Below, one piece after another: positions 425-50,800 of a stretch of DNA of 64,000 bases. Numbering within the stretch: position 1 is the stretch's first letter; every line of letters starts with the position of its first letter. The notes under the pieces were generated by a model that did no database searches, was not told the DNA's origin, and saw nothing but the letters and a program-made list of their open reading frames with translations. The stretch spans positions 317,538-381,537 of the forward strand of contig JAAOMT010000128.1 in the NCBI GenBank assembly GCA_016748015.1. Reading direction: 5' to 3'. The stretch comes from Geosiphon pyriformis uo1. Lineage: Eukaryota; Fungi; Glomeromycota. The translations under genes and the position numbers were made by a program.

Positions 425-1300
425 TGTTATGGTTTAAGAATTTAGCAAAAAGAATCATAAAAATAATACAAACTATTCAATCATAATATAGCACAGTAAT
501 AATCTTAGAAAAGTAATGATTAACATAGTAGCAAACACTATCTTGCAATAGTAGCAAGCACCAGTTCATAATAGCAGTTAACACCAACTGGTGATAGCAG
601 CAAACACCAGATTGAAATATCAAAAAGAAAGTATTACAATGTGTTTTCTCGTAGAACTACAAACATGTATATATACAGTAGTTTTAATATTGGGAAAGAA
701 TCAATCAAGTAATAAAAATCATAACTTATTAAGCAATAGATCCAATTTTATCCAACAAACTCCACTTTAAATCATATTTTCAAATTAAATATTCCAAGAA
801 ACCTTTAAATCAAAAAAAAATGAAAAAGAATATTTAAAACTGAATTATCACAACCCAAAGTATTAAGAAACTTACTTGTATTATTTATTGAATAAAACTA
901 TCATTCATCAACTGAATCTCTTGGAAGAATAATCCTTGATCAAGATTATTCACGTTATTACTAATTGATAAAAGCTTTATTGTAAGAATTAGAAAAAGTG
1001 CTAAAGACCATTAACATTTTGTGTTTCTAGATTAGAGAAACACATCAGGCAATTGCAAGGATAGTTTCAGAAAAGATCTCAGACAGTGGGTAGATTTCAG
1101 TTCAGCCTTTGAGAAGGAGTACATAAACATACACAACAATCAAGAATTGAAGAATAACTTACATTACAACATTAAAAAGAAAGCCTTCAGTATAACAGTG
1201 ACATTATCACACAAATAGAATTGAGAAACTCATGAAAGACTGATTGCAATTAAAACGAGATATCAGCAATTAAATATAACAAGAAAACCATTCCATAACA
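425..1300 (+). repeat. Element A 5' LTR (876 bp)
   Basis: Near-identical to 9178-10054. TATATATA at about 668; short ATAGCAGCAAACACCA-type repeats at about 525-610. Confidence 0.97.
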
Positions 1301-1302
1301 TT

Positions 1303-1318
1303 TGGTGAACCCTACGAG
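1303..1318 (+). promoter_or_regulatory. Primer-binding site of A (TGGTGAACCCTACGAG), possibly tRNA-Trp
   Basis: Begins with TGG 2 nt after the LTR. The complement ...CTCGTAGGGTTCACCA resembles eukaryotic tRNA-Trp 3' ends; tRNA identity is recalled, not searched. Confidence 0.75.
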
Positions 1319-1382
1319 AAAAGAAAATCAAAAAGGAAATAATAATTAGCAATAATTCATTGCTAAAAAGGAAGAGACAAAA

Positions 1383-4300
1383 GTGGTGACAAAAACCTCT
1401 AATCTTACTGTTCTTGAATTCTGCCATGCTATTTACACACAAAATCAAAGTGATCTTGGATTACCAGAAGAGTGTTGTCCAGCAGAATCTGCCCTCACTT
1501 ATTATATCAACGCCAGAATAAATTATCATATAAGAAAGGAAGAAAAACCACATGATGCAAAACTTGGATTGTATAGAGAATTATCACAATACACTACAAA
1601 AGAAGTAGCAGTAATAGCCGCAACTATTGTCAAAATTCATCGAGAAATTGAGCAATATGCCAACAAAAATTTTCTAATATCCACAGGAAACACTAGGGAA
1701 CACGCCAACAAAACCAAAGAAAATTTAGAAACTAATCAGGAAAGTAACCAGCAAAAACTAGGAACACCAGCTTAAACACCAAAGAAAACTGTCACTCAAT
1801 CAATAAAAAAACAACGTATTTATTTACTAGAAGATAAATCATACCATTTTTTACCAGAAAATAAGATACAAATTCTATTAGGAGCTGCATCATCATCAAC
1901 ATCAACTCCACAAATGCCAAAAACTCCTAGTTATACTGATAAAATTAAACAACGTAACTGGGGAGACATACCAATTACAGAAGGATATTCATCACTATTC
2001 CAAAACTCTTTTTTTCAGCCAAAATTTAGAATGGGGTTTGAAAACCGTGAAGAAAAGTCTAAATTGGAATCCAAAAAAGAGACCAGCAAAAAAACAATCA
2101 CAAGACCAGTCACTAGAACAAGCAGCCAGTCCAGAAACCAAGAAACTTGTGATCAAGAAGAAGAACTGAATATAAGGGAAGCCACCTTTAGGAACACTTA
2201 AGGAAATATCATCCCACCTCTTCTTAGACCAATAAGCCCACCAGCAGAAAATGGCAACGAAATGACCACATCATACATTACAAGACTAACAGATTTCTCA
2301 GGAGAAAAAAAAAAACCGGACGTGCACACATAGCTCAGAGAAGCACAAAAAGCCATCCAGGCAAATAACTAGAACAACCAAAGAGCAATTCAAACATTAC
2401 CTTTCTTCCTGAAAGGCACAGCCAACTCGTGGTATCAAAGCCTGGAAACAAAACCCACAAGCTTCACCAAATTTAAAAATGCACTCCTGGAGTATTTTAG
2501 CGACCCAAATGCCATAATCCAACTACAGAACAAATTCAATACTATCAAGCAAAATAGCAGTGAAACTGTCACCCAATACCTTGCTCGATTTAATTGAATT
2601 CGTTGTCAGATTGAAGCAATTGAACAAAAATATTACACTGATCCTCAGGTTTTAAATCAGTTTATTAGAGAATTAAAAAGCAGCATTTTAGGAAGAGTAC
2701 ACCCTGTCCACCCTAATTCCTTACCAGAAACCATTATGCTTGCCAGAGCCCTTGAATCGGCTGAGAAAAAAGCTAACCATAGTCAAATGGTTAACATGGT
2801 AATAGAGGAAAATAAGACAGAAACATTAGAGAAAAGAGTAACGCAATTAGGGGAGGAACTCTCTAAGAAAATAGAAAGTTACCTCATCCCAGATCCGAGA
2901 AGAAATACATACCAACCACCCCAAAAACGCAGCCAGGAAGTCAGCGACAGTTGAAATAATTGCTCGTCATGCCAGGAATTCAGAACAAAAATGCATGCCT
3001 GCCATTTTTGCAAATGCATAGGACATTTGATTAGTCAATGTCGAACACGAATGATGCAGAAAGCACGTGAAAATAATTACTACATGCCACCCCAAATGCC
3101 CAGAAACTAGTACATGCCAATACCACGCCAATATCCCACCACATATCAAAATCAAGGAGCTTATCAGCAACAGTCCATGATAGCCAACCCAAATTGGCAT
3201 CCCAAGGCCTGAAATCAGCCTATGTGGAACCAGAATGTGTTGGTCCAGAGGAATCCAAACCACGCCAAAACCAATCAGCAAACCAATCCAAACTACCAAA
3301 ATTATCAACAAACTTATCTTAATATACCAGAAAATCTGATTATCAGAAATAATGATGGTAGAAACATAAACAGAACCAAGAATTCCTCCAACAAATTAAG
3401 CCAAACAATACCACCAGCAGTTGCCACCAAAGATAGCAGCCTCGCAGCTATTTTTTTTTTTGAATTAAAAGAAAACAAGGCTATGTTCAATGGAGCAGCA
3501 TTGGACAAAAAGTGCCCAATCACTGCTATGTATACGAAAGCCACTGTAAACAATACTCCAATCAAATTTATTTTAGACAGCGGATCCGCTGGAAGCATCG
3601 TAATGCTTCAACTAGTAAACCAACTGGGTTTCAAAGTTGATCATGCCACGACATCCCAAATCATAACAGCTGATGGAAGTACAAAGCTGCCTCATGGCAA
3701 AATCGACTCATTTCCTTTCGAAATTAACAGCATAGTAATACCTACAAAAGTATTAGTAATGGATGCTACACAATATCAAGCATTAGTAGAGAATGACTGG
3801 CTAACAAAAGCCAATGCCACCTTAGACTGGACCACCCAAGAGCTTCTAATCAATTATAATTGCCACCAGGCCAAAATTCCAGCCACCTGTGGCCACTTCC
3901 AAAAACCCAGCACCAACCAAAGACCTACCTTCGAATTTAAGGAAAATCCAACACTACCAGCCATTGAAACCTATCAGCTCTCTTGAGTTGATAACCAAAA
4001 AACAAGACTACCAGTCATACCAATGTGGACCAGCGAAGAAAGATCCGAATGGAACCAGGTAAGTTTATGAAAAAACCACCAGCAATACAGACCAAAACTA
4101 GAATGCTCAGTTTGTAAGAAGAAACTCTCGTCTATGACTGCGTGCAGCACACTAAATAAAGACCCAAGAAACCCCACCCACTACTATTGTAACCATTGTA
4201 ACAATGAAAAATACGGTTACCCAGAAAGACACGAAAAATAGAATGAGGAACTGTGCCTCACTTGTGGAGAACCGTTACCAAAAGGATGTGACTGGAACAA

Positions 4301-7085
4301 CATACCAGACAGAGGAGGAATGTGTGACACAACTTGCCAATACACAATCCTTATCTGTGACTGGGTAAAAGGAGGAATGCCATTCGAAGCAGCATTCAAC
4401 AGAGTGTTAAAAAGACTATAGCACTACCCACATGACGAGGACGAGTTGTACAACACCGCACAAGCCAAAGTAAGAGAAGGAACCGCCAAAGAAATACGAT
4501 GTTGAAAAGAGTCAGCTAAAGTAGCCAACAAAGTCGCCAGTTACAACATGTTCGACCCAGTAGACGAATTTCAGAACTACTACCAACAACTATGCCCCAC
4601 TTGACAAGAGCAAGAACAATACCTCGCCCAAATCAACACTTACTTCTGCAAAAACTGTCTTATCCCATGCCAAAATCAGTGTTGTGAAGAGTGTCAAGAC
4701 GAAAGGGGCTTAGAAAGAAAAATGGAAATTGAGAATCAGCAGTCTCAAAATCAATCAATAAATCAACAAGACTCATCTGACAGTCACAAGTCAGAAAAAT
4801 TTGTAGCTTATACCGACCTAGAACAGATGACTGACATCCGATATTTTGACAACGGGCACTTAGGAATAATACCCAAAAGAGCCTATCTAACCGATGCTGG
4901 ATTCGATCTACGTTATCTAGAAGACCAATCCACAATGTTACCATCCAAGAGCATCATCAAAATTGACCTAAAAACAGTAGTTGAAATTCCGCTAGGAATA
5001 ATGGTTCAAATAGCATCATGATCAAGCCTTGCAAAAAAAAGAATAAGCATTCAAGGAGGAGTAATTGATTCTGGATACACTGGAAATTTGCTACAAAACA
5101 ATTCAGAAAAGCCTTATACCATTGAATCTAAGGAAAAAATTGCACAAGCAATTTTCCTACCATTGGTAAAAATTGGGAAATTTGTGCCAGTAGAAAATCA
5201 TGAGGAATTGTCACAAACAACGAGAGAAACTTTTGGTTTCGGATTGACAGGAAAAGGAATTGAAGCGAATTTCGCTAAAACAATAGAGGAAAAAGGCAAA
5301 GTAATTAAAAATGAACAGCCCATTATGCTCCTACCATATGAAAAATCAGAAATAAGAATAAAAAGGACAATTAAAGAAAAAGACCTAATATTTGAGCCCT
5401 ACCCAGAAATCTGCCAACAGTTTCTTATAAGACTTACTAACTTTTTTATTCCAGCTGATAAAGCTCAATGGATAAAAATTTCTATTGCAAACACCACAGA
5501 AGAACCCGTCTATATTCCGGAAGATACCATCATTGGATACCTTGAAATGGAGCTAGAAAACATGTCAACACTACAAGAAATTCTAAATTTCTCAGAAATT
5601 GCCCTCTACTGTGAACTCACTTCAATAAATTGGCAACAACTGTTAGAATGCTATCAATTTACGCCAGAAGAATTGGCCAAATTAAACATTGGAACAATGG
5701 ATCCTGACCAACAGTAACAATTAAAAGCATTAATTTTAAAATACTCTGATATATTTTCATGAAATGGCAAATTTGGAAGAACCAACTTGGTTCAACACCA
5801 AATTCCCACTGGAGACATCAGATCTAAAAAACAATGCGCTTACTGTATCCCACCAATGGAGCATAATTTTATCAGAGAAGAAGTCCAAAGCATGTTGGAA
5901 AAAAGAATAATACAACCATCAATGAGCCCATGGTCCTCACCAGTTGTTTTAGTAAGGAAAAAGAACAGAAAAATTAGATTTTGTGTTGACTATCACAAAC
6001 TAAACAGCAAAACAACCAAAGACTCATACCCAATACCATTAATTGATGAAATCTTCGACATTTTTGGAGAAGCAAAATGGTTTTCTACACTGGACTTGAC
6101 CAGTGGGTACTGGCAAGTGGAAATGGACCCAAAGGACAGACATAAAACAGCATTCACAACACAAAATGGCAATTATGAGTTCAATGTAATGCCATTTGGA
6201 TTAACAAACACTCCCACAACATTTCAAAGACTAATGGATGTAATTTACTCCAGAATCCTGTGGCAATCCATTGTTGTCTACTTGGATGATACAAATGTTT
6301 TCTCGTCAAAATTCATGGATCATTTCCAATATTTACAACAAGTTTTTGAGAAATTGAGACATGCTGGACTTAAACTAAATCTAGAAAAATGTTTTTTTGG
6401 GAAAAATGAGCTAGCATTTTTAGGACACATAGTTGGAAAAGATGGAATAAAACCAGATCCATCAAAAATAGACAAAGTGAAAAATTTTCCAGTACCTTGA
6501 AATGTTTCAGAAGTTAGAAGCTTTTTAGGACTTGCATCTTACTACCGCCACTTTGTAGAAAACTTTTCAAACATCGCCAAATCTCTTAATTATCTATTAT
6601 CCAAAAATGTGAAGTTTGAATGGACTGAAGCACAACAAAAAGCTTTTGAGTACCTTAGACGAAAGCTCATTGAATCACCAATAATGATCTATCCAAATTT
6701 CAACAAGAAATTCATTTTGGCCACAGATGTCTCTGAAACTGGACTTGGAGCCATTCTGTCACAAAAAGATAATAATAAAAGAGAATGTGTAATTGCTTAT
6801 GCCAGCAGAAGTCTCAGTACGATAGAACAAAACTACGCAGCACATAAACTTGAATGCTTAGCAGTAGTCTGGAGTTGTGTTCACTTTGACACATATTTAT
6901 AGTACCAACCCTTTGAGATTATGACAGATTATAGAGGTCTGGTCTGGTTAAATAACAAGAAAGCACTAAAAGAAAAATACGTCAGATGGTCACAAATATT
7001 AGCACCATACAATTATATTATCAAATACAAAGAAGGTACCAAAAATGCTAATGCTAACTGTTTGTCAAGAATAAGACACACATAA
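1383..7085 (+). pseudogene. gag-pol: A ORF1 polyprotein: N-domain, capsid, CCHC, protease, Cys-rich region, dUTPase, dUTPase-like domain, RT, RNase H; many nonsense codons
   Basis: Fragments 1383, 1914, 2736, 3222, 4722, 5088, 5787 and 6609 all lie in one frame. Motifs: CHFCKCIGHLISQC, LDSGS, AGFDL/GVIDSGYTG/KIAQAIF, RFCVDY, MPFGL, YLDD, TDVS, ECLAVVW. The true start codon is uncertain. Confidence 0.93.
4860..5255 (+). pseudogene. dut: dUTPase domain in element A
   Basis: Motifs DAGFDL, IAS*SSLA (likely CGA>TGA), GVIDSGYTG, KIAQ and RETFGFGLTG match dUTPase motifs I-V. Confidence 0.93.
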
Positions 7086-7114
7086 AAATCACCAACCCAC
7101 CCGCCACAACAACA

Positions 7115-8411: not shown

Positions 8412-8495
8412 TTAATCTTAGATCACAGCAAAAATGATTTAACAACCATAAAAACGCATGCAAAAGATTCCAAAATAGCAGTCAAAATTAAAACA

Positions 8496-9164
8496 ATGAT
8501 ACTTATTCCAGAAAACATCAACAATATAACTCAACAATTAGTTGAAAGCTTACAACAATTAAAATCCGATCTGGAAATCACAGTTAATAGCTCCAAGATA
8601 ACATACATAAAAAGAACAATAGAAAATCCAAAAACAAGAAAAGAACATAATTTTGAACCATATAATATTGCCAAATATAACAACAAATTTATCAGCAAAG
8701 TTATTGAAAAATTAGAGATAGCATTGGGCAATACATTAATAATGGAAGAAATAGAAATAAGTGAATTAACACCAGACACATTTAGCAACTTGAAAACAAA
8801 ATTTCCAATTAATTACTATTATTATCAACTAGGAAAGCACTTAAACATACAAACATTATACTTAAAAGACTTAACTAGAGTGTTTAACAAAACAACTATC
8901 CAACTATTAGAACCTTTTATTGGAAAAACCAACACTACATTTTATTCAAAAACAGTTTACAGAATTTTCAAAGCATTTGAAAACTGTCACAAATTATTGT
9001 TGGACCCAACCATAAACATAATAACAACCAACAGTATTAGATGACTTACCAATTCGCAATTTCAAGAATTACAACAACAAATTAATAACACAGTATTGAA
9101 TCACTATAGTAACTTAAAATTTAATGAAGAAATTAACTTCGATTTCGACGGAGCTCAATCTTGA
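8496..9164 (+). pseudogene. A ORF3, unknown protein of about 222 aa (one internal TGA at 9042)
   Basis: Homologous to the ORFs at the same position in B, C, E and H. Ends FDFDGAQS* overlapping the PPT. Confidence 0.85.
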
Positions 9165-9177: not shown

Positions 9178-10054
9178 TGTTACAGTTTAAGAATTTAGCA
9201 AAAAGAATCATAAAAATAATACAAACTATTCAATCATAATATAGCACAGTAATAATCTTAGAAAAGTAATGATTAACATAGTAGCAAACACTATCTTGCA
9301 ATAGTAGCAAGCACCAGTTCATAATAGCAGTTAACACCAACTGGTGATAGCAGCAAACACCAGATTGAAATATCAAAAAGAAAGTATTACAATGTGTTTT
9401 CTCGTAGAACTACAAACATGTATATATACAGTAGTTTTAATATTGGGAAAAAAAACAATCAAGTAATAAAAATCATAACTTATCAAGCAATAGATCCAAT
9501 TTTATCCAACAAACTCCACTTTAAATCATATTTTCAAATTAAATATTCCAAGAAACCTTTAAATCAAAAAAAAATGAAAAAGAATATTTAAAACTGAATT
9601 ATTATAACTCAAAGTATTAAGAAACTTACTTGTATTATTTATTGAATGAAACTATCATTCATCAACTGAATCTCTTGGAAGAATAATCCTTGATCAAGAT
9701 TATTCACGTTATTACTAATTGATAAAAGCTTTATTGTAAGAATTAGAAAAAGTGCTAAAGACCATTAACATTTTGTGTTTCTAGATTAGAGAAACATATT
9801 AGGCAATTGCAAGAATAGCCTCAGAGAAGACCCCAAACAGTGGGTAGATTTCAGTTCAGCCTTTGAGAAGGAGTACATAAACACACACAACAATCAGGAA
9901 TTGAAGAATAACTTACATCGCAACATTAAAAAGAAAGCCTTTAGTATAACAGTGACATTATCACACAAATAGAATTGAGGAACTCACGAAAGACTAATTG
10001 CAATTAAAACGAGATATCAGCAATTAAATATAACAAGAAAACCATTCCATAACA
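9178..10054 (+). repeat. Element A 3' LTR
   Basis: Direct repeat of 425-1300, followed by TSD CTGC. Confidence 0.97.
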
Positions 10055-19895: not shown

Positions 19896-22800
19896 TTAGA
19901 TTTGTCTTATTCGCGATAAACCATCAGCATTTTCGTTGTTTTTTTCCTTTTTGTAATGTATAGTATAATTGTATGGTGTGAGTGCCCTTTTCTATCTTGA
20001 CTGTCTTCTATCTCCAAATTCTTGTTTTTGAAGTGATATTAATCCCTTGTGATCTGTGTATACTTCAAACTTCTGGCTCAAGTATTCTTTCCATTTCATG
20101 ACGGCCCAGTATATTGCTAAGTGTTCTTGTTCCGGTGTTCTATAGTTCTTTTCAGCTGGTGTTAAACCTCTGCTGGCATATGCTACTGGATGTTCTCTGC
20201 CGTTCAGTTTTCTCTAAGATAATACTGCTCCCAATGCTTGGCTGGATGCATCAGTGGTGATAATGAATGGTTTGCTGTAATCTGGATAGATCAGTATTAG
20301 AGCTTGGATGAGCTTTTTCCTCAGAATATCAAAAGCTTTTTGTTGACTTTCTGTCCATTCATATTTCACATTTTTGTTTTGTAGTTGATTAAGTGGCTGC
20401 GCTATCTTGGATAAAATGACAATAGTAGCTGGCAAATTCCAAGAATGATTTCAGTTCTGTTATATTGGTCGGCACTGAAAAGTTCTTTACTATCTCTATT
20501 TTCTCTGGATCTGTTTTGATGCCGTCTTTGCTGACTATGTGTCCCAAGAATTTGAGTTCCGTTTTGCCAAAGAAGCATTTTATTGCATTTAACTTTAGTC
20601 CTGCTCTTCTTAGTCTTTTGAACACTTGTTGAAGATAATGAAAATGATCATCAAACGTCTTTGAGAATACATTAGTGTCATCCAAATATACAACTACTGA
20701 TTTCCACAATAAGCCAGTATAAACGATTTCCATTAGCTGTTAGAAAGTTACTGGGGCATTGGTTAAGCCGAATGGCATCACTTCAAATTCGAAATTCTCT
20801 TCTCTAGTAGTAAATGCTGTCTTTTCTTTGTCAGCTAAATTCATGGCTACTTGCCAGTAACCACTGTCCAAATCTAATGTAAAGAATCATTTGTTCCCAC
20901 CAAACGCATCAAATAATTCCTGTATTTGTGGAGTTAGATAACTGTCTCCATGAGTTACACCATTGAGTTTCCTGTAGTCTACACAAAACCGGATTTTTCC
21001 ATTTTTCTTATAGACGAGTACTACTGGTGACAACTATGGGCTCATTGATAATTGAATTAGCCCGTTGTCAAGCATTCTGTTTATCTCTTGACGAATAATC
21101 TCGTGGCTGGCTGGTGGCACTCTGTATGCTCTTTGTTTGATTGGCATTGCATCTCCAGTTTTGATCTGATACTGAATGATGTCAGTTCAGCCAAATTCAT
21201 TTTCACTGGCAAAGATGTCATTAAAATTGTTGAGTAACATCTTGAGCTGCATACATTGGAGTGGATCTAAGTTTCCCATGTTCATTTGTTCCAATTGTTC
21301 TGATTGGAGCAAATTACATTCGTCTTGTCCATAGATTGTCTGTGATGTGATGTCAACATATTCACAAAGTTGTAAAAAGTCTGGAATGGAGTTTGGTGGT
21401 TGGTCTTCTATTTCTGTGGTTAGATATCTGATGGTGGTTCCTTCTGGTATGTTGATGACATTACCAGTGTTGTTGTAGATGGAAATTTTTATGCTGCTAT
21501 AGCTTTTGGCTAGTATGTGGAGATTGATCAACCCAATCTCTCCTGATTCACAAAGGGTTGCTTCTGCTTCAAAAATCTGTTCTTGCTCCTTTTTCTTTTT
21601 TTTTATTGCTAACATGTACTGGCTATATGGTGGAATGGAAATAGCTTGACCAGTTGAGATAATTTCTCCTTGGCCAACAATTTCTTCTTCTGCCATGTTA
21701 ACTGGTACATCTATTCTACCTGTGGATCCGAATCCTTGTATTCCTCTCACCATTATTTCTAATTCCTCCCTCTTTCTCACTGATACTAACTGAGCTATTC
21801 TAACCAGAGGCAGGAATATTGCCTGTGCTATCTTTTCATTGGGCTTTATTACATAGGCCTTTTCTGAGTCATTTTGTAGCATAGTGATAATATTTCCTAC
21901 ATATTTTGTATCAATTATTCCTCTTCTTATATTAATCTCTCTTTTCGCTAAACTACTCCTAGATGCTAATTGAACTATTGTTGTTGCCGAAATTTCTAAT
22001 GCTATTTTCAGATTAATGCAAGTGTGTGAATGCGGTTCTAATTTGATGGCATTTTTTTTCTGGATATCTCAGATCAAACTCTGCATTAGTATCATGCACA
22101 TGTTCTGGTATAATACCTTCCCCATTGTTACTATACTATTTCAACTCTTGTTCCTTGGAGAGATCTGATAGTGCAATGTATTGTTCATAGTTTACATCAG
22201 GTTTTGAATCTGAGTCTGAATCATTTTTGTCGTCATTGCCAATTTAAACAGAGCTTAAACCGTTGTTATTGTCATTATTGTCGGAATTTGAATTGTGATT
22301 GATCGGCGATTCTGATTCTGATGCGCAGCTGCTGATTGGTTTTTCTTCTTCAGGGATTGAGTAAATCATGCGTGGTGGTGGATTGTAAATGAGGTCACAC
22401 TTATTACAATACTGGACATCACAGGGAATTAGGCAGTGTTGACATAGTCGAGCATTTAACTGCTCTAACCGTTGTTTTTGTTCTTCCCTTGTGGATGCTA
22501 ATTCTTGGTAGTGTTCGTAGAATTGTTCTGGATCCAGGAGGTTTATGATGAGTTCTGCATCCCAGTCAAGCTCTAAAGGTTCTGGGGGGTTGTCTTTAAT
22601 CGTTTTTATTTCTTCTGGCATTGCCTCTTCGATTTTGGCAAGTGCTATTCACCAAATTTCATCATCGTCATGTAGACAACTGTCCAGTTACTGCACGGCT
22701 CTTCTCCAGGCTGTTTTTATTGGGGTTCTTTTCCTTACCCAGTCGCTTATTAGAATTGTGTATTAACACGATACGTCACATGTTCCTCTATATCCTGGAA

Positions 22801-25800
22801 TGTTGTTCCACATCCCTTCATCTAGCAGGGTCTCCCCACAAGCGAAACAAGGTTGGTTATCCCATTTTCCTTGCCTTTTTGGTCGTCCAAAGCGTTCGAA
22901 TAAATATGGACGACAGTAAAATTTTGTTGCGGTGTGGTATTCTTCATTGTCGCCACAGCATGTGCCCATTGACGACAATTTCTTACCACAATCGCCACAT
23001 ATAAACTTAGGTCAACGATAGGTAGATTGTTGTGGTATAGTGTGGGTGTTATAAGCGGTGGTGGTTTGGGTGGTCTCTTTTTCTTTTTCTTTTTCTTTAT
23101 TTTCTTTGTCTTTTTCCTATTCCCAGCTTGACGTTGGTTTGCTTTCGTTGTTGTCGGTCCATGTCAGATCATCGGTTTCCCAGGTAAGTTCTTCCTTTTG
23201 TTTCCCTTTTTCCTTGTTGTTGTCATCCCAGGAGAGTATTGGCGGCAGCTCGTTGTGCTCTTCATCAGCCCACGATACTTGGTAGGCTTCCCAGATAAGC
23301 TTTTCTTTCTCCTTCTCCAGTTTGATCAATAGTTTCTCTCTTGGAGACATTTTGAAGTGGCCACATGTGGCCAAAACACATATGTGTTGGTCCTGATACA
23401 TTAGCTGGAGTTCCTGGGTGTTCCAGTCTAATGTTGCATTGACTTTGGATAGCCAGTCATTACCAACGAGAGCTTAGTATTGAGTGGCTTCTATTACTAG
23501 AACTTTAATGGGAGTCACGATGCCATTGACTTCCAAAGGAAACTCGTCGATTTCACTAATTGGAGTTTTGGTTGCTCCATTGGCTGTGATGATTCTGGTG
23601 CTGGCAGTTCAATTAACTTGGCGATCTAATTGATCCATAAGTTGTCATGTAATTATACTGCCAGCTGATCCACTATCTAGGATGAGTTTGATGGGGTAAC
23701 CATCAACTCTGGCATCCGTGTACATTGCTGTTATGGGTTTCTCTTTGAGAGCGGCTCCACTGAATAATGGTATTGGTGTGTTTTCTTCAAGTTCGAAAGG
23801 AAAAATGGCTGCTAGGAATTTGTTGCTAGAGATGGTTGCCGGTGGAATTGTGTTGGTAGGTACGTGCTGATTGAATTCTGTGTTGTTGGATGTGGCATTT
23901 TCTGGGGTAACTAGGAGACTTAAATAATATTGGGAATTTGGGTTTTGGACATGACTGGTATCTAGATTCTGGGTGCGTGGTCTTAATAGTGGGTCTAACA
24001 AACGGGGAATCGGTTGGTGAACAACCATCGCCGATTTCCAGTTTTGAGTGACTTTGGATCGGGGGTTGCCTGATGTCATTTGAGCTGGGTTCTGGGGCAG
24101 TGTTTGAATTGGTTGGGGTTGATAGATGATTTGTGGCTGTGGTTAATATATTACTTGTGGCTGCGGCTGATAAATCGGAGGTTGATATACTGACAGTTGA
24201 TAGATTGGTTGCTGCATCATTGGCAGGTAATTATTCTAATATTGGTCTTGACTTTGATTTGGATAATGATTCGGAGTTTGAAACTGGCAATTGGGGTTTC
24301 GATATTGATTTCCCAATTATTGGTTATTTAAACGCTGGTGACAGTCAATTTGGATATGTCCTTGATTACCACAATAGTGGCAAATACACGTTTCCTGTTG
24401 CCACTGTTGATTGGTTAATGAAGATGGACGCGGTTGATTTTGGCCATAATTAGGATGTCCTTGATTATTGCGTTGTTGTGAAGACTGATAAATGGTGTGA
24501 TTGTCAGCTAAGTATTCTTCCAATCTCTTATTAATTGATTCACTGAACTTCTCCAATTTGGAATCCAATTCAGATAATCCATTCATTACTAGATTAATGG
24601 CTTGGGCATGGTTAGCCTCTGACTCAGCGGATTCAAAATCTCTGGCGCATGTGACTGCATCTTGAAGCGTGCCAGGATGCAATGGACGTATATGTTGCAA
24701 GATGCTGCTGCATAGGCCACGGATAAACTGGTTGAGTATCTGTGGTGCTGTGAAATAGTCGTCGTTAATTGCTTGAATTTGGTGCAAGTTTCAATGGAAG
24801 TGTCCCAGGTAAGTGGTGACTGCTTCAGTTTTTTCTTGTTTCATGGTGGTGAATGTATTGACTAAGCGATTGATACTATTGTTGTTGCTGAAGTATCTTA
24901 GGAATTCCACTTTGAAGGCATTGAAATCTTGTGGTTTATTAACCAAACTCTAATACCATGAATTGGTGGTATCCTTGAAAAAGTAGGGAATGGCTTGTAT
25001 TGCTTAAGTATTATTCTATCTGTTGGCTGCGATGGCCTTTTCTACATCATTCAGCCATATTTGAGCGTCATCCTCTTCACCAGTAAAGTTGTCAAGTTTT
25101 GTGATTGGTGTATAGGCCATTGGATCTAAGTTAGGTAGTTGTGGTGGCTGTTGAAGTGGTTGTTGTTGTTCTGGCTGTTGGGATGGTAGCTGAAGTGGCT
25201 GCTGTATGGGTTTGGCTATGGGATTAATTGGTGGTTGATCAATGACGATTACTGGAGATAAGTTTTGCTGATTAATTAATTCGGGTTTTTGATTTCTTTG
25301 ATTTGGTGGTGTTTGAATATTCGGAGTTTTGATTTCCAGATTTTCTAACTGTTGCTGAGTTTAAAGGTTCAGAGTTTCAATTTCTGGGTTTTCAGAGATC
25401 GGGTGTAGGTAAGTGAATTCTTGATCCTCTGATTCTTCTTCCTCCTTTTCTGATTCTGCTGCTTTTCATGGATCAGAAATTCCAAAATCTGGTGGAGGTG
25501 GTGGTAATCGAAGTCCTGATGGGGTTGATGATCGCAAATTAAATCCCTCAAAGTATTTGCCATATGGTCTTAACAATTCTGTTTTCTTTTGTCTACTTTG
25601 GAATGAGAATCATCCAAATACTGATGTTACAGTTGATGAAAACGCATCAGTTGATGATATGTTGATGGCACTTCCAGGTGTATAGTGGTAGGATAGGTTG
25701 CTTGGGAATTCAACTCTGTTTTTCTTCTAAGCAGGTGGCTGTATTTTTCGGGGTGTTACTGCTAGTGTTTGTAATTTTCTCTTGTCTTTACTAGCGTATG

Positions 25801-27049: not shown

Positions 27050-30000
27050 ACATAGCACAACGATTCCCTCAAGTACAACAACCAGTGGAATCCGACCCTG
27101 AGGAATATGAAAACAAATCTAACAACCCTGTAACTACCCAAGCCAAGTCCACAGTCAACAAGAAACCAAGGGTTCTCTCCCCAACAACTCCATCATATCA
27201 TCAGACACCCCAAAGTAGAATTGTATTCAACTTACCCCTGAAAACCCAGTTGGAAATACCATGAACTCCTGGAAATTCACACCCTTGGAATCAACACAGT
27301 TGGACCAAATCATTAGGAGAATATGGATCGCTGTTTGGAAATCTTACCCCAGCAGCCAGTCAAACAGAAGAAAACCCATCAACTTGGGAACAGCCACCAG
27401 CACAAAACCTAGCAGAATCAGCATCTCTCCTGACGGAAAAAACAGCTATCTTACAACCTATTGGTTCAAGTGACAAAGGAAAGCAACCAGCATTAGCACC
27501 CAGAGAACACTCGAATATGGACACCAATCTCTTTAAACATAACCAGTAACACTCCACCCATTAACCAGATCATGACTTACTGGGATATTGCTAAATTGGA
27601 AAAATTCTCTGGTAAAGAAGATAACACATATTCTTGGATTGCGGATGCCGAAAAAGCAATTACCACTAATGGTTGGAATGATAACTGCACAGTTCAGACA
27701 CTGCTGTTCTTTCTAACTGGAACTGTTGATTCGTAGTACCAAAGCCTGGCAGAGAAGCCTATCTTCTTTACCGAGTTTAAACTGGCATTTCTACAATACT
27801 TCTGTGACCCCAATACGTTAATCTGATTGCAGAATCAATTCAGCATAATTAAACAAAAAGATCATAAAGCAGTAACTACTTATCTCAAACAATTCAATCA
27901 AATCCTGCGTCAAATATTAGCTATCGAAAAGGACTACTACACCACGGTGCAAGTTGTTAATCAATTTATTAAAGGATTGCAGAGTAGTATTCTAAGATCC
28001 ATAAGACCTCATCATCTGACCAGTTTACAAGACGCCATCACTTTCGCTCGCGATTTTGAGTCTGCAGAACAAAAAGCAAACCATACCCAAGCCATTAATT
28101 TAGCCATTAACAGAACCTCTGACATCGATGTAAAGATAATCCAATTGAGTGAGAAACTAACTCAGAAAATTGAGAGATTCTTAGCCGGAACTACAGGAAC
28201 TTACCAACCACTCCAATAGAGAGAAAATAACAACAACAGCAGATACCCACAGCAACAAAACCATTAGCAACAGCAACAACCTTAGAAATCTGATCCCCAC
28301 AACTGCTACTACTGCCAGAAACCTAGACACATCGCCCATGACTGCAAAAGGAAGATCATAGACCAAAATCAAGGAAACCCATACCAGCAATCCAGATATC
28401 AGCAAAACATGGTACCCCAATATTCTATACCTCAGAATTAACTGCCCCTATATGCACAACAAATCCCGTACACTTAACCACTGCCCCAGAATTATTATCA
28501 ACCACCACCAATGACACAAGCAATCTCTCACTATTAAACTTCCCCTTACAGCCCATCCAGACCTCGAACTATAGACTATAATCAGGGATAGAGGAATCTC
28601 AACAACAATCAGGTACAAACCAACAGTGGACTATCTCAATCAATCCCTCGCGGTCCTGCCCAATCTCAACTAACACCAACTGGATACTCGAATCAAGCTT
28701 CCTATCTCGGTCTTATGGAAGACCAGGGTTTTGATAAATCTACACCTGTAGAAGAAGGGATATAGAATGAATCTCCCAACCTTCTAAGCAAACAAAAAGC
28801 AATATCCCACCAGTCACTATTACCGAAGACACCACCCTAGCTGCCATATTTTTTTTTGACATTGATAATTTGAACACACATAGCCTTTTTAGTAAAGCAG
28901 CCATCAATCAGGATAAACCAATAACGGCCCTATACACCAATGCCAGAGTCGGAGGAATAGACATTAAATTAATCCTGAATAGCAGATCAGCCAGTAGCAT
29001 AATCACGAAGCAGCTCATGGACCAACTAGGTCACTAAGTAGACTGTGCTGCTACCACCCAGATCATTACAGTAGATGGGAACACAAAAACCCTGATAGGA
29101 GAAATTGACAACTTCTCCTTCGAGATTAATGGAATCCAAATCCCTACCAAAGTACTTGTCATGGAAGCTACTCAATATCAAGCTCTAGTAAGAAACAACT
29201 GGTTGTCAAAAGCCAATGCTACTCTCAACTGGAACACCCAAGAACTTCAACTCACGTTCAATGGACAGCATGCCCGAGTTCCAGCTATGTGTAGACACTT
29301 TAAAAACCAACGTACCGAGGAACCCCTTATTGAATTCGAAGACATATCAATGCCACCAACCATCGAGATCTATTAGATTTCATGGGTGGATGATTATCAA
29401 ACTGAACTACCCCCACCACCAATCTGGGAAGAAAAAAGAAAAGGCAGAGCTGAAGAAGAACCCTAATTGTCATTACTAGAATACGTAACCTTGGACCAAA
29501 GAAACTTATTTTACCAACTCCTAAGACTAATATGTGTTGATTGTGGGAAAAAACTATCTACTATGAGTGCATGTATTAGGGACAACAAAGAATGGTCCAC
29601 TGCCACCAAATATTATTGCAGGCCTTGTTTACTGGAAAAATTTGGATGACCAAAATGACAAGGCAAGTGGGACCACATGCCGTGCCTCACATGTGGCAAA
29701 ATCCTGCCAAATGAAGGACTCTGGAATGATGTGTCTGGCAGAGAAGAAACATACGATGAGACTTGTCAATACACCATATTAATCAATGATTGGGTATGAA
29801 AGGAAACCCCCATCGAAGACGCTTGGAAATAAGCACTCAACAGGCTAGACGGTTATCCACACAATGACCACAAAATCTGGAGAATGGCAAACACCAAGGC
29901 TGAAGGCACCACAACCAAAGAAATACGAAAAATTAAGGACAACTCTTGGATGCTTAAATATACTAGACCCGACTACCCCGAGGATGATTTCTTTACAGAT

Positions 30001-32566
30001 GACCCAGACACATTTCAGAACCAATATCAGGAATTGGCCCTGACCTGCGAGAAACAGGAGCAAAGATTGGCTGATTTGAATACCAAACTATGCAATTACT
30101 GTTTGATCCCCTGTCACTTCCAGTACTGTGATGAATGTGATCTCATGTTCAATCCACTTCCAAGAATACTGTTTCCAATCACCGAACTACCTGAACCCAA
30201 AGAAGAAGTATTGATTACCAAAGACATGTTATTTCAAGATCCAACTGAGAATACTGAAACAGAACAGTATCTCGCGTATCCCGATCTCTCCAAAGAACTA
30301 GAGCTAAAATGGTACAGTAACAACGAGGAAGGAATCTGCCCCAAAAGAGCACATGACACCAATGCTGGTTTCGACCTATGATACTCCAGACAATTACCCA
30401 TCATTATAGCCCCACATTCCCTCATAAAAATAGATCTTAAGATAGTGTTAGAAATTCCTGTTAGTACAATGGTACAAGTTGCCTCTTAATCTAGTCTAGC
30501 CAAGAAAAGAATCGACATAAAAGGAGGAATCATCGATGCCAGTTACACAGGAAACATCATCGTAATGCTACAGAACAATTTGGACAGACCCTACAAAATA
30601 GAATCACAAGAAAAGATTGTCCAAGCTATCTTCCTACCCCTAGTCAAAATACCCCAATTAACCCCAGTAACAACCTGAGAAGAGTTAAGTCTTACTGCCC
30701 GAGGAATCAACGGGTTTGGATCAAGTGAAAGAGAAAACGTACCAGTTAATTTCATGGAGGAAGACAGTGATCAGGTAGAATTTATCCATGCTGACACCAT
30801 TATCTCCATTCCCCCATACTGACAATACATCCTCAAGGTAAATTGAAAAATCCAAGATCAAGCCTTATTATTCGAAGCCAGTCCCGAAATCTGTTCCCTA
30901 GCCAATGTTGCTAATCTATACCTACCAGCCAAAGTCCATAAACATTTCAAAATCCCCATCCACAACTCGACAGAAGATGTTATTGAAATCTCCGAAGAGA
31001 CCCTCGTCAGTTCCATATCCGCAGATAATCAGAATTCTGAAAAACTCCAGTCCATTCCAGATTTCACACAATTATTCTTATTCTGTGACATTACCTCACA
31101 AGTATAGAATTTGCCAAAAGAAAGTTACTTGTTCACACCAGAAGAGATCAATAAATTGAATTTAGGAAATTTAAGTACCCTGCAACAAATACAATTCAAA
31201 GTCTTTCTGAATCAGTATGCCAATGTCTTTGCCAGTGAAAATGAGTTCAGACACACTAACATTATGAAGCATCAGATTGATACAGGAGACGCTCGACCAA
31301 TTAAGCAATGAGCTTACCATGTACTCCCATCTGGCGATAACCTAATTAAGCAAGAAGTGCAATGGATGTTTGATAATGGCTTAATCAAAGAATTGTTAAG
31401 CCCTTGGTCCTCACCAGTAGTCTTGGTCACCAAAAAAAACGGAAAAGTGCAATTCTGCATAGATTATTGAAAACTAAATAGCGTTATGCAAGGAGATAGT
31501 TATCCCACTCCCTTCATCCAGGAAATTCTGGACAATCTAGGGAAAAAGAAATGGTTCTCATTATTAGATTTAGCAAGTGGTTACTGGCAAGTTGAAATAG
31601 ACCTCAAAGACAAAGAAAAAACAGCATTTATCACTCGAGACAGAAACTTCAAGTTTAACGTAATGTCTTTTGGACTTTGTAATGCTTCTGTCACGTTTCA
31701 ATGCCTGATGGATGTAGTATACAAAGAAATTCTTTGGAAATCAGTAGTAGTCTACCTAGATGACACAAATGTGTTCTCCAAAACATTCGAAGACTATCTG
31801 CTCCATCTGCAACAAGTTTTCGAATGTCTTTGTAGTACTGGATTGAAACTCAATCTCAAGAAGTGCTTCTTTGGAAAAACCGAGTTAAAATTTCTAGGAC
31901 ATGTAATCGGCAAAGACGGAGTTAAATCTGATCCAGATAAAGTACAAAAAGTCAAGGATTTTCCAGCCCCAATCAACCTCAGAGAATTACGAGGATTTCT
32001 AGGATTAGCAGGATATTATTGTCAATTTGTCAAAGATTTCTTGAACATCGCAAAACCACTCCATCAATTGTTGTCCAAATACATACTATACTTGTGGAAA
32101 GAAGATCAACAAAGAGCATTTGACTATCTCAAGCAGTGATTGATCATATCCCCAATTCTGATTTACCCAGATTTCACTAAACAGTTCATTGTCGCTATGG
32201 ATGCCTCGAAAAATGCTCTAAGAGCAGTCTTATCACAGATAGGACTGGACAATAGAGAACACCCAGTTGCCTATGCTAGTCACAGCACTAGCCCAGCAGA
32301 AAAGAATTACAGCACAACAGATCTGGAATGTCTCGCCATTTATTGGGCCATACAGACTTGGAAACATTATCTCAGTCAACTATTTGACCTATATACCAAC
32401 CACAAAGAACTTATTTGGTTACTTAACAATCCACAACTAGAAGGAAAATATGCAAGATGGAGTACTTATCTGCAACAATTCCCACTCAAAGTCCATTACA
32501 AGGAAGGATCCAAAAACACCAATGCCAACAGTTTGTCAAGAATGTCACAAACCTAATTCCAGACCC

Positions 32567-40399: not shown

Positions 40400-43300
40400 A
40401 TTAACAGTTAATTTAAAAATCCAAAATAAACTTTTTATATTTTTAAAAAATAATCTCTAATCAAAATTATTTTATAAATACTAATTTTGTTTATTAATCA
40501 GATAACTTTTTTATGATTTGTAATAATATTAAATAAGTTATATAGTAAATATTATCTGAAATATTTTATGGTCTATATGATTACAAAACATTCTATTTTA
40601 TAAGCTATGTAGTTCTTTTCAGTTATGTTTAGATTTTTGCTAACATATATAACTATGTGTTTTTTTTTTTATTTTGTTGTAATAATACAGCATCTAGACC
40701 TGTTTTAAAGACATCAATTGTAAGTACAAATTTCTTGGTAAAATTGAAGTATACTAAAATGAAAGTTTTAGTAAATCTTTATTTCAGGTAATTAAATACT
40801 TATTCTTGTTTTTTACTTTATTTTTGTTTTATATTTTTAATTAATAATTAATTTAATGATTAAATCACTGTTAAGAAGTCTTTGACAAATCTTCAATAAT
40901 ATAAGGCAAGTTCTAAAAATTCTTGAAGTTTAGTTAGATTCTAAAGGTAAAAAAAATTTTAACTTTCTTAATTTTTGTAGAATCAGATTTTATTTCATTT
41001 TTTCCAATAATGTGTTTTAAGAAAATAAGTTGTGATTTTCTGAAAAAACATTTTTCAGAGATAAGTTTTAGTCTAGCAGTCTGAAGTTTTTCAAAAACTT
41101 ATTATAAATGTTTAAAATGCTCCTTAAATATTGGTAAAAATACATTCATGTTATTTAAGTAGATTATTATGAATTTTCACAAAATTTTGAAATAAACAAT
41201 ATTTATTAGCTATTAAAATATTATGAGAGTATTGCTTAATTTAAATGACATTACATTAAATTTATAATTGCTATTTTGAATTGTAAAAATAGTTTTTTTT
41301 CAATTATTGAAATCCATAACTATTTGCTAATATCAGTAAAATTTAAGATTAAGAACTATTTAGATTTTCTTAAAGTATTCAAGATTTTATTAATTTGTAA
41401 TAAAAAATAAACATTTTTTTTGGTAATATTATTGAGTTTTTTATAGTTGATACAGAATTGGATTTTTCTATTTTTTTTCATATTAGAATAACAGATAAAA
41501 ACTATAAATTCATAAAGAATTATATAAGTCTATTTTCTAATATTCAATTAACTTTTTCTTTTATAAAATTATGTTTAGATAATAATACTTAGTAAACATA
41601 TTGCTTAATGAGTAATGTATCTTCTGTATAAAATTTGGTAATAAACCAAGTTGATTTAACCAAACTTATTTTTTATGACAAAAATATTTGAATATTTTAA
41701 ATAAGTGTTTTTAATTGTTTTTGTTGTAAAAAGTCTAGTAATTCAAAATTAAGCTTAATTAATTTTTTATTGGTTATTTAGTAGTATTTAAGAATTGGTT
41801 TCAATAGAATTGGTTCAGTTTTACAATATAATACTAACTAAAAAAAGTCAAAGATTTTTTGAAGTTTATATTGATTAGTAATATCTGTACTTAGATATCT
41901 TAAGACTATATTTTCAGATAAATATATAGTTTTTTTAGATAAATTGTAAATAAGTATTTTTATTTACAGATAGTTATAGTGTGATATATATAAATTAATA
42001 ATACCAATTAGAAATTGTTCACAAAAAAAGTGTGTAGCTTAAATAAAAAATCTTTTTTTGTTGCTTTTTTATATGTGTTATATAAGTACATTTCAAATAG
42101 TAGAATTGTAATTATTTTATTAATTTGAATTATTTCTAAGTTTTTTCATGTTGTTTCTATATAGTCAATGGATAGTGTAACTATTTTTATAAAATCAAAA
42201 TTTTGAGTTCTGTATTTGGTCTTTTTTAGCTTTTTTTGGATTTTAATAATGATTAATTTAATAATTCAGAGTAAAAATAAGAAAATTGCTTGTATAATTC
42301 TTTTTTTTGGTTTAATTACATATAATCAGTCTGATTTATTATGTAATAGTACTTTAAAATTTTCCATGTATTCAAAATCCATAATTTTTTTTTGATGTTA
42401 ATTTTTTTTTTGGTTAAACTAGATTAAAAAACTATGTGTACTATAACTTTAGTTGATATTTTGAATGTTATTTTTAGATTAATTATAATAACAATAAATA
42501 ATTTCAAAATTAGTGTTTAGTTTTTGGAATATTAAAGATCAAATCTAATATTAGTTAAATGTATCTGCTTTAGAAAAATTCTTTGGTTGTTATTAATAAA
42601 CCATTTAATGTTAAATTTTTGTTAAAAATTAATAAAGATATAAATTGTCTAATAGCATTTCTAATATTTGTAAAGTTTTATTTTGTGTTTTATAGTCTGA
42701 ATAATTTCCAGATTAAACTGTTTTTTCAGATAGTTTAAACTGGATTTAACAGTTAAAATATTATTGTAATTAACAAAAAATTAAATAGTTCTTATACAGA
42801 TAAGTATTTATTTATATAAGATATTATTTTTGCTTTTTTCATATTAGACAAAATTCTTGTAAAAAGTTTAAAGAGTTGTACCTAGCAACTTTTTTGATAA
42901 CTTCTAATAATACTTTCTAATTTCAAATATTTTTAGTTATTTTATCTTATATACTTGCTTTAATTATATTATATAGTTGTTTGGTATTATGTAAGTAATA
43001 ATATATGTAATTTAAAACTTTATTATAAGCAGCATTAAAAAAAAATTTTTTCTTATCTAGTTGGTAATAAGAACAGTATATTAACAAATAAAATCACATA
43101 TGGCTTTACTGAATTATATATTAATTTAGCTGTATTTATTAGGTAAGATTTTTTTACATGTAATATAAAAAGTTTTGTCTTATTTTTCTGATTGTTTTGA
43201 ATATTTGTATGTTTTTTTTGTAATATCAGTTACAATAATAGTGGGTAGTCTATTGGTTATTTTTATATAGAACAATATAAATTGTTATAAAAAATAGTTT

Positions 43301-43417
43301 TTTTTGGCAAACTAAATATTGTAATCTTGATTAATAACTTTAGTAATATTGGAAGCAAAAAAAATAAAACAATATAAAGTTGGAAGTTTTATTAGTTTAT
43401 ATAGAAACAGATAATAG
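40400..43417 (-). mobile_element. Element D: heavily decayed Gypsy internal region (PR, dUTPase, RT, RNase H)
   Basis: Remnants: LKLISEKCFFRKSQLIFLKHIIGK (about 41000-41080), ILVYFNFTKKFVLTIDV (about 40710-40760), GFDL-like at about 42540, IF.PL region at about 42280. Confidence 0.7.
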
Positions 43418-48000: not shown

Positions 48001-50800
48001 TTTATTTTTTTTCTCTTTTTATAATATACTGTATAATTGAATAGTAATAGTTTTATTTTCCATCTTGCATAGTAATTATCTTCAAATTCTTGTTTCTGAA
48101 TTAATGTTAATCTTTTGTGATCAATATACATATCAAACTTTTGGCTCAAGTATTTTTTTTATTTAATAACAGTCCAATAAATAGCTAAGTGTTCTAATAC
48201 TAAGGTTTTATAGTTTTTTTTAACTGGACTTAAACTTTAACTAACATATGCCACTAGATGTTCTTGCTTATTTGTTTCTTTTTGTAACAATACAGCTCTC
48301 AATGTCTAATTAGATGCATCAGTAATAATGATAAATAGTTTGTTGTAATCTGAATAGATTAGTACTAAAGCTTAAATAAGCTTTTTTTTTAAGATGTCAA
48401 AAGTTTTTTGTTGGGTTTTGGTCTATTTATATTTTACATTTTTTGCTTAAAACTGGTGCAGTGATTGTGCTAGTTTGGAAAAATTCTGGATAAAGTGGCA
48501 ATAGTATTCTGTAAATTCCAAAAATGCTCTTAATTCTGTTAAGTTGGTTGATACTAAAAAGTTTTTGACTATCTTGATTTTATCTGGATCTATTTTGATG
48601 CCATTTTTGTTTACAAAATGTTTTAAAAACTTGAATTTTATTTTTCCAAAAAAACACTTGGTAGCATTCAACTTTAATTTAGCTTTTTTTAGTCTTTTAA
48701 ACACTTGTTGTAAATAGTAAAAATGGTCATCAAATGTTTTGGAAAACACATTGGTATTATTTAAGTAAACTATTACTGATTTTTATAGTAATTTAGTGTA
48801 GACAATTTCCATAAGCCATTGAAAGGTGGCTGAAGCATTGGTTAAATCAAATAACATAATATTAAATTCAAAGTTTTTTTCTCTAATTATGAATACTGTT
48901 TTCTCTTTGTTGGCTGAATTTATGGCTATTTGCTAGTAACTATTGTTTAATTCTAGTGTTGAAAACCATTTTTTTCTTCCAAAAGCATTAAATAATTCTT
49001 GGATCTGTGAAGTTGGATAATTATTTCTATGAATAATACTGTTAAGCTTTTTATAATCTACAAAAAAGTGAATTTTTTTATTTTTCTTACAGACAAGTAT
49101 TACTAATAATGATTATAGATTCATTGATAATTGAATTAACTTATTGTCTAACATTCTGTTAATTTTCTGTTGGATGATTTTATGGCTAGCTGGTAGTACT
49201 CAATATGCTTTTTGTTTAATTAATATTGTATTTCTAGTTTTAATCTAATGTTGGATGATGTTAGTTCTTCCAAATTTATTTTTATTGGCAAAGATATCAG
49301 TAAAGTTATTAAGTAGTATTTTAAGTTGTATTTGTTAAAATGGATTTAAGTTTCCCAAGTTTATTTGTTCTAATTGTTCTGATTAAAGCAAATAACATTT
49401 TTTTTGTCTGTATATTGTTTATGATGTAATATTTACATATTTACAAAGTTGTGAAAAATCTGAAATAGTATTTAGTGATTAGTTTTCAACTTTAGTGCTC
49501 AAGTATTTGATGATAGTTTTATTTGGTATTTTAATTAGATTTCTAGTTATATTGTATATTAAAATTTTGATGTATTTGTTGTTTTTGACTAATATATAAA
49601 GATTGGTAATAACAATTTTTCTTGATGTATAAATGTTTGTTTCTGTTTCAAAAATTTGGGGTTAGTCTTTTACTTTTTTTTTTATAACTACTATATATTG
49701 GTTATATAATAGAATAGAAATTGATTGATTGATAGAAATAATTTCTTTTGTATTAACTGTTTCTTTTTCTATTATATTAATTAATATATTTATTTTATTT
49801 ATTGATTTGAATCTATTAATTTCTTTTATTGTAATCCTTAATTCTTTCTTTGTTCCTATTAAAACTAACTGAGCTATTTTAACTAAAGATAAAAATATTG
49901 TTTGTGCTATTTTTTTATTTGGTTTAATAATATATTTTTTTTCTAAGTTATTTTGTAGTATTGCAATAATATTTTTTACATATTCTGTATCAATTATTTC
50001 TTTTCTAATATTAATCTTTTTTTTTATTAAGTTAAATTTAATACTAGTTAAACTATTGTTATTGCTAAAATTTCCAGTATTATTTTTAGATCTATACTAG
50101 TGCATAAATGTGATTTCAATTTGATGACAGTTTTCTCTAAATATTTAAGATTAAATTTTGTATTAGTATTATGTATATGTTCTGATATAATATCTTTTTC
50201 ATTATTATTGAACCATTTTAGTTTCTGCTCTATTGATAAATTTGAAAGCATAATATATTGTTCAGAGTTGTGATTGGAATTTGAATTGTTTTTATTGTTG
50301 CCATAGTAAATAAAGTTGGAATCATTGTTGTCATTATCATTAAAATCTGAATTGTAATTGAATTTTAATTCCAATTTTGCTGCACACTTGCTAATTGGTT
50401 TTTTTTATAGAAATCAAATAGATTATATGTGATAGTAAATTATAGATGAAATTACAATTATTATAGTATTCAAAATCACTAAAAATTAAGCAATATTTGT
50501 ATAGTCTCATGTTTAGTTGTTCCAGTTTTTGCTCTTGTTTTTTACAAGTTGGTGTTAGGTTTTAGTAGTGCTCATAGAATTGTTTAAAATTGTTCATAAT
50601 ATTATTATTGAAATTGAAAATTAGAACAAATTCAGATTTAGAAAGTATTAGTGAGTTATTTTTAATTTTTAGTATTTTATTGATTAAAATGCCTTCAGCT
50701 TTAGCACTCACTATTCTCCAAATCTTATGTTTATTATATAGATAATCTTTCAATCATCTCAGTACTTATTTTCAGATGACATTAATTGGAGTTTTTTTTT
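45073..50800 (-). mobile_element. Element E: decayed C-like Gypsy element (3' LTR 45073-45878, ORF3, IN, RH, RT, dUTPase, part of Cys-rich region), 5'-truncated
   Basis: Collinear with C 16870-22730. FSKTFDDHFYYLQQVF; DFDRAQY*; TAA after RNase H at 47965-47967. Confidence 0.9.

Follow-up and report, generated by a model that had tools for sequence, protein, structure and literature searches.

The stretch analysed here, a 64,000-nucleotide window of the genome of the glomeromycotan fungus Geosiphon pyriformis uo1 (assembly GCA_016748015.1, contig JAAOMT010000128.1, positions 317,538 to 381,537 of the forward strand), is a pile-up of decayed retroelements; 41.2% of the G. pyriformis genome is reported to be covered by long terminal repeat (LTR) elements (PMC11952901). 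Element A is bounded by paired LTRs, both flanked on their outer sides by the target-site duplication CTGC. Its Gag, protease, dUTPase, reverse transcriptase (RT) and RNase H share one frame that is interrupted by stop codons only, without a frameshift, with the integrase following downstream, and its Pfam matches come in the Ty3/Gypsy order: Ty3_capsid, Asp_protease_2, RVT_1, RT_RNaseH, Integrase_H2C2 and rve. Element A is a Ty3/Gypsy LTR retrotransposon with a dUTPase between protease and RT. Two further elements are nested: C (16870-27047, minus strand; LTRs 91% identical) lies between the 5′ LTR and gag of B (15429-35861; GTGG on both outer sides). In all three, a cysteine-rich insert, which is the subject of this report, is found in frame between protease and dUTPase, and every copy of the insert in the window is dead.

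The insert of element A runs from a first cysteine at 4104 to a last one at 4692-4694, and packs 19 cysteines into 200 residues, as compared to 41 in the whole 1768-residue frame of the element (Table 1). A preliminary description of this DNA, made from its letters, had placed three cysteine clusters and a helical DWV.KG.P...YPHD segment between protease and dUTPase, and all of these are present in frame, at those places, in A, B and C. The length it gave, about 250 amino acids, needs qualifying: the core from first to last cysteine measures approximately 197 amino acids, and the spacer from protease to dUTPase is longer and variable. The same description took the decayed element D to lack the insert, which is incorrect: D retains the helical part and finger 3, and upstream of this remnant no gag, protease or finger 1 or 2 was found. 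Element D is therefore truncated at its 5′ end and provides no test of the insert’s absence. A fifth element, E, holds a decayed remnant of the whole insert with all three fingers; one copy of an AT-rich repeat separates its pre-insert linker (44330-44040) from finger 1.

Table 1. Coordinates of the insert, its parts and its copies, and of the surrounding features of element A (positions within the window).
Feature	Position	Strand	Evidence
Finger 1, CxxC-x24-CxxC, predicted treble clef	4104..4199	+	Cys conservation and structure model
Finger 2, CxxC-x19-CxxxC, TRASH-like spacing	4254..4337	+	Cys conservation; model of low confidence
Predicted helical bundle, then acidic segment and long helix	4338..4646	+	pLDDT 85-92 for first helices; charges
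Finger 3, CxxC-x8-CxxC	4647..4694	+	Cys conservation
Insert in B	29533..30138	+	43% identity to A, E 2e-40 (tblastn)
Insert in C	22397..22999	-	39% identity to A, E 1e-41 (tblastn)
Remnant in D, helical part and finger 3	50427..50804	-	107 bits, E 2.5e-34
Element E, decayed remnant of whole insert, all three fingers	42722..43327	-	E 2.6e-16; second search E 3e-14
Candidate protease cleavage motif upstream of insert	3966..3983	+	E-[TA]-[YF] motif
Candidate cleavage motif at insert-dUTPase junction	4794..4811	+	rank 8/1763 hexamers in A
Element A, Ty3/Gypsy LTR element	425-10054	+	paired LTRs and Pfam domains
5′ LTR of A	425..1300	+	TG...CA ends; 97% identity to 9178-10054
3′ LTR of A	9178..10054	+	26/877 mismatches against 5′ LTR
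Gag-protease-insert-dUTPase-RT-RNase H frame of A	1776..7079	+	Pfam domains in single frame
Aspartic protease of A	3519..3899	+	Pfam Asp_protease_2 E 5e-9; RVP_2
dUTPase of A	4866..5252	+	Pfam dUTPase E 3e-17

The insert is a selected coding domain that was once a working protein domain. In the three comparisons among A, B and C, synonymous sites are saturated (proportions of synonymous differences, pS, 0.73, 0.73 and 0.85, versus nonsynonymous proportions, pN, of 0.36, 0.38 and 0.25), yet the insert is still 45, 41 and 55% identical, so that it must have been under purifying selection; Gag, at 45% identity, is conserved to a similar degree and the enzymes, at 57-67%, more strongly. Cysteines are retained preferentially: among 14 Cys columns 12 do not vary between A, B and C, a share that falls to 49 of 133 in those columns of other residues that can be compared (Fisher p = 0.0009), and both Cys losses in the window are single G-to-A changes that turn TGT or TGC into TAT or TAC (Tyr). 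We also aligned 401 pieces of 289 database proteins, assigned to seven reference lineages that are 32-56% identical. In each lineage the same twelve core columns hold Cys (of 1905 letters, 1754 are C, 114 Y and 37 other). It is the number of lineages that counts here: the rows are not independent, as most of the proteins are gene models for pieces of dead copies within a single genome. In DNA run X1, 3966 contigs span all 30 bins of 3500-5300, and 196 of the 201 places of difference are transitions; this run may be the source sample and was not counted as independent.

The preliminary description had staked its case on the cysteines, and in this it was right: the twelve fixed in all seven lineages define a core of CxxC-x24-CxxC, CxxC-x19-CxxxC, helices and CxxC-x8-CxxC. 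Some of its finer detail does not carry across the lineages. The first cluster is real and ends in YCxxC, but its middle Cys is replaced by W in one lineage (8 of 8 rows) and by T in the database record P0184; the CxxC-x8-CxxC core of the third is likewise fixed, but rows of the C lineage are split at its LIPC Cys between S (24) and C (23), and the His of YPHD is E in P0184. The three four-Cys sites are predicted to bind three zinc ions. We rejected the idea that the fingers are internal duplications of one another (hhalign probability 0.7-2.4%).

The selection pattern also largely refutes the view that the insert is a mere passenger, captured or degenerate and without function for the element. 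While no homologue was seen outside these elements in the searches made, and one related record, P0386, is without the insert, the frame, the length and the 12 Cys have been retained in seven lineages despite saturated synonymous sites, and the insert is kept in P0184, which is unbroken; we consider a passenger very improbable.

Searching with the insert of B retrieved 55 proteins, all annotated as Geosiphon pyriformis hypothetical proteins, and a profile of A, B and C matched 203 proteins, of which the best 120 are again all Geosiphon pyriformis hypothetical proteins. In a hidden Markov model (HMM) scan, 384 of 1.84 billion representatives matched at E up to 0.001, and the best 150 of these were examined; among ten of the more divergent ones that we checked, nine are from Geosiphon and one is P0184, an ENA record. 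P0184, an unbroken protease-insert-dUTPase-RT piece of 1064 residues, retains every one of the 12 Cys and shares 36-41% identity with the others, and its best PDB sequence match is Ty3 Gag-Pol (E 2e-38). When its protease-to-dUTPase region was used as the query, the best 120 of 159 matches comprised P0184 itself, 118 Geosiphon proteins and P0386, and the insert was present in 89 of the 94 new proteins. In P0386, which lacks the insert, residues 150-260 form a spacer that is shorter and acidic and holds a small CxCxxC cluster, and 258 amino acids lie between the motifs, versus 422-533. Pattern searches of a metagenome contig collection (232 matches) and a viral contig collection (126 matches) yielded no confirmed relatives. 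The domain is lineage-restricted among the matches listed, and distant homologues may hide among the lower-ranked ones.

Pairwise identities of the insert follow those of the protease (83 proteins) and the dUTPase (82 proteins) with a Spearman coefficient of 0.79, a value reached by 0 of 500 permutations, as expected for a single gain and shared descent. Nearest-lineage calls made from the insert and from the dUTPase agree in 71 of 76 cases; the agreement with protease calls, 42 of 78, is uninformative, as two lineages were without a reference row in that comparison.

Consistent with the early placing of this region outside the canonical Gypsy Pol, no family match was found in Pfam, the PDB or the ESM Atlas. 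Pfam returned nothing above cut-off for the inserts of A, B and C (only DUF3885, E 0.98), nor for the insert in five intact records and 75 members; the strongest hints below cut-off were zf-HC5HC2H (17.1 versus 29.1 bits in P0059; 2 of the 75 members) and LIM (best E 0.26; 3 of the 75). A sequence search of the PDB peaked at chance level (E 0.87), a further one was dominated by dUTPases, and the best ESM Atlas matches, at 0.78 and 0.77, were also at chance level.

The AlphaFold2 model (75 rows) has a mean predicted local distance difference test (pLDDT) score of 73.5: 70-84 for finger 1, 57-66 for finger 2, 85-92 for the helices that follow and 56-69 for finger 3. Foldseek gave no rows at E up to 0.001 against the PDB (406 rows) or BFVD, the top PDB rows being LIM domains at E 0.11; the lack of a family from such fold-match lists excludes nothing. 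In a two-finger model (pLDDT 72.5), VIA superposed finger 1 on 6cw3_E (Ada2/Gcn5) with Z 4.1 and a root-mean-square deviation (rmsd) of 1.7 over 37 residues, followed at Z 3-4 by ribosomal chains, the ZZ domains of Nbr1 and p62, LIM domains (Z 3.1-3.3) and PARP-1 fingers. We take the structures matched by finger 1 to be treble-clef fingers, and the aligned ranges of Ada2 and Nbr1 to be ZZ domains. Finger 2 scores a pLDDT of 50-66 across models and is scarcely covered in the fold lists, and the helical part matched generic helical bundles only (wide VIA comparison, best Z 5.3). For finger 1 the prediction is a treble clef of a ZZ-, LIM- or TRASH-like kind (Z about 4), with no family singled out, and for the part after finger 2 it is a helical bundle.

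Comparison with the individual finger families yields likenesses in finger 1 (its predicted treble-clef fold, at Z 3-4, where ZZ and LIM are tied with unrelated treble clefs) and in finger 2 (its x19 CxxxC spacing, as in TRASH/L24e/zf-FCS), and no profile match to any of them. TRASH and zf-FCS fingers are defined by a CxxC-x19..22-CxxxC spacing, and the CxxC-x19-CxxxC of finger 2 falls within it. The resemblance noted in the preliminary description is thus borne out for the spacing, but not by a TRASH or zf-FCS profile, for which no match was found in A, B and C, in the five intact records or in the 25 of 60 families listed for the 75 members; the treble clef that it saw resembled in this second module is predicted in finger 1 instead, finger 2 being weakly modelled. 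LIM domains have two fingers two residues apart and His as the third ligand; in the insert 18 residues separate fingers 1 and 2 and all ligand positions are Cys. ZZ domains have two interleaved zinc sites, and the second of these is absent from the insert: finger 1 contains a single extra Cys, in whose place two lineages have W or T. With respect to PHD, ePHD and ADD, which have eight cross-braced ligands, the insert has no His ligand, and PHD fold rows appear at Z 3.2-3.5. We rejected an ADD identity, considered from the spacing of that domain, as no profile or fold row supports it.

The insert is flanked by candidate cleavage motifs. E-[TA]-[YF] with hydrophobic residues occurs at most 45 amino acids after the end of the protease in 69 of the 84 proteins, a motif of the [YF]-[IL]-A-[LY] type lies 9-12 residues before the dUTPase, and the linkers on either side are acidic and vary in length. 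A profile built from the upstream motif only places the pre-dUTPase hexamer 1st or 2nd in B, C, P0079 and P0116, where 709-1347 positions were ranked, and 8th of 1763 in A. It is likely, with moderate support, that the protease cuts at both ends; the product freed would measure approximately 276 residues in A and, at most, approximately 370 in C. Of six lineages, almost every one has an acidic finger 2, an acidic finger 3 and an acidic segment behind the helices, and the insert as a whole is net acidic.

Our preferred reading, to which we assign a probability of about 0.4, is that the insert is a protease-released adaptor that binds host proteins, in the particle or on the cDNA-integrase complex. 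The domain would be translated within Gag-Pol, then freed by the element’s own protease as an accessory protein of 270-370 residues and probably packaged at Pol stoichiometry; there it would join the cDNA-integrase complex to host proteins, most plausibly giving access to the nucleus or to chromatin, or blunting silencing by methylation or small RNAs. Since the insert is mostly acidic, unlike nucleocapsid, we favour an adaptor over a nucleic-acid chaperone. We also count the superposition of finger 1 on ZZ- and LIM-type fingers in its favour; ZZ and LIM fingers bind peptides. That a Gypsy element can carry an accessory protein with a candidate C4 finger has a precedent in CERV of Cer1 (PMC10309623). 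As for what might be blunted, in related fungi transposable elements are reported to be methylated and to give rise to small RNAs (PMC8647823). The role in chromatin targeting or anti-defence that was suggested for the insert is a guess.

Several observations weigh against the adaptor. No significant match defines a function. The AlphaFold2 model has a predicted template modelling score (pTM) of 0.43, in addition to the low scores of finger 2 (57-66), and the fold matches of finger 1 are tied at Z 3-4, with RNA- or DNA-binding fingers (ribosomal, PARP-1) as numerous as protein-binding ones. Finger 1 has an invariant KK and is, like its flanks, neutral to basic, which fits nucleic-acid binding. 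P0386, an unbroken protease-dUTPase-RT record, has no insert, which is therefore not required by all kin. Release by the protease, as the preliminary description had it, is backed indirectly by similar motifs at both ends, but the junction is weak in P0185 (rank 5/503, score 6.5), P0060 (6/619) and P0184 (23/1059); moreover, both motifs are candidate sites for this protease, the junction test was post hoc, and there is kinship among the four lineages that rank best (47-56% identical).

On the main rival reading, the fingers would stay fused to the dUTPase, or bind it, and tether it to the reverse-transcription complex. This is how the nucleocapsid (NC)-dUTPase of the betaretroviruses M-PMV (Mason-Pfizer monkey virus) and MMTV (mouse mammary tumour virus) is described: the protein remains uncleaved and binds nucleic acid (PMC1802613, PMC4531489). 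As there, the dUTPase of a retroelement polyprotein has a zinc-binding module (a predicted one in the insert) immediately before it; the two co-descend, as the 71 of 76 nearest-lineage calls indicate, the P0386 spacer has its short CxCxxC cluster, and a zinc knuckle beside the dUTPase is reported for rotifer Juno elements (PMC5408684). The differences are, however, considerable. NC has basic CCHC knuckles, whereas the insert has none, being built of C4 fingers and a helical bundle, with a strongly acidic dUTPase-proximal half; it lies after the protease in an element that has a Gag knuckle of its own, and a cleavage-like motif separates finger 3 from the dUTPase in most lineages. We regard such a tether as possible, if doubtful.

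A second alternative gives the released protein a nucleic-acid target: through finger 1 and its basic flanks it would bind the element’s own RNA or LTR DNA and regulate export, packaging or transcription in the manner of Rev or CERV. CERV, from the Cer1 element of C. elegans, is described as a Gypsy accessory protein of no known family with an essential candidate C4 finger (PMC10309623), and is a precedent to that extent; likened by description, it differs in having one Cys loop with H, M and G domains, as compared to three fingers inside Pol. The invariant KK, the basic residues on both sides of finger 1 and the ribosomal and PARP-1 fingers among its structural neighbours are in line with such a regulator, but the domain is mostly acidic. 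Products embedded in Pol are released only once particles assemble, which is late for the export or transcription of the same RNA. We find this unlikely.

Finally, the insert could be a counter-defence factor akin to Vif or Vpr, which would either bring in a ubiquitin ligase or cause the degradation or blocking of a protein of restriction or silencing. Retroviruses have small, helical, zinc-binding accessory proteins that act in this way; the decayed copies D and E show CpG loss (observed/expected ratio 0.00), and weak RING rows occur among the fold matches. Those rows, however, have E of 0.02 or worse with rmsd above 11, and neither a RING pattern nor a ligase-box match was found. The methylation and small RNAs of related fungi (PMC8647823) would supply a defence to counter, and even so we hold this alternative to be quite improbable.

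Other parts of the window deserve brief mention. An open reading frame (ORF) of approximately 250 amino acids follows the integrase at 8394-9161 (+) in A and is a second unexplained accessory gene of the lineage; with homologues at 18389-17772, 34021-34703, 61272-60551 and 46472-45981 it is seen in five elements, at 25-37% identity and with no Pfam match. Chromoviruses have a chromodomain after the integrase; at E up to 0.1, Pfam gave no Chromo match in A, B and C, all decayed copies, and an SH3_Tf2-1-like match below cut-off follows the integrase of B and C, and a run of 20 N occupies 8197-8216 in the integrase tail of A. The Gag of B has a weak zf-CCHC match in Pfam. A short ORF precedes gag in A (1356-1772, +) and C (26071-25766, -), with 29% identity (E 6e-8) and a weak PAZ_2 match under cut-off (E 0.0013, 19.1 versus 23 bits) that is perhaps due to chance. 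Between dUTPase and RT, a conserved 170-amino-acid region (5250-5759, +) has no Pfam match, its end weakly matching the protease-RT region of foamy viruses; we rejected a second dUTPase as its identity (hhalign 0.69%). A sixth element fragment, at 60470-62842 (-), comprises an integrase and the 3′ ORF and is 75-80% similar to B. There are also non-LTR pieces resembling long interspersed nuclear elements, at 11954-14860 (-) with RT and RNase H and at 36327-38971 (-) with an endonuclease match below cut-off, and an AT-rich family of repeats that contains a 12-bp tandem array (11157-11802, 43505-44089 and 51356-52033).

Both the class of element and the position of its dUTPase are known, and the triple-finger domain matches nothing catalogued. 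PosPlaTy3-5 of Postia placenta is described as carrying a dUTPase between protease and RT (PMC2864245), a layout that A shares as an LTR element; the excerpted description mentions no zinc-finger insert, and the likeness to A is one of layout. In the literature on dUTPase-bearing Gypsy elements we found no description of the insert, with the Geosiphon genome papers, Repbase/GyDB and supplements lying outside this search. To our knowledge, accessory proteins inside Pol are rare among described LTR retrotransposons. A broader conjecture, which we rate as rather doubtful, is that fungal Gypsy elements have an accessory-gene slot between protease and dUTPase, filled again and again with different zinc-finger modules, and that the triple-finger protein, carried in the particle, reads chromatin or acts against silencing. 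It would then be an accessory protein of retroviral style encoded within Pol, and would have helped this lineage to take over much of the Geosiphon genome. The narrow range seen and the lack of any functional clue restrict the significance; unbroken natural copies (P0184, and P0059 for the insert) nonetheless make the domain directly testable. For Geosiphon itself, hundreds of annotated ‘hypothetical proteins’ are explained as transposon fragments, and the insert is a candidate for how many of the Gypsy lineages of this non-model fungus replicate or evade silencing.

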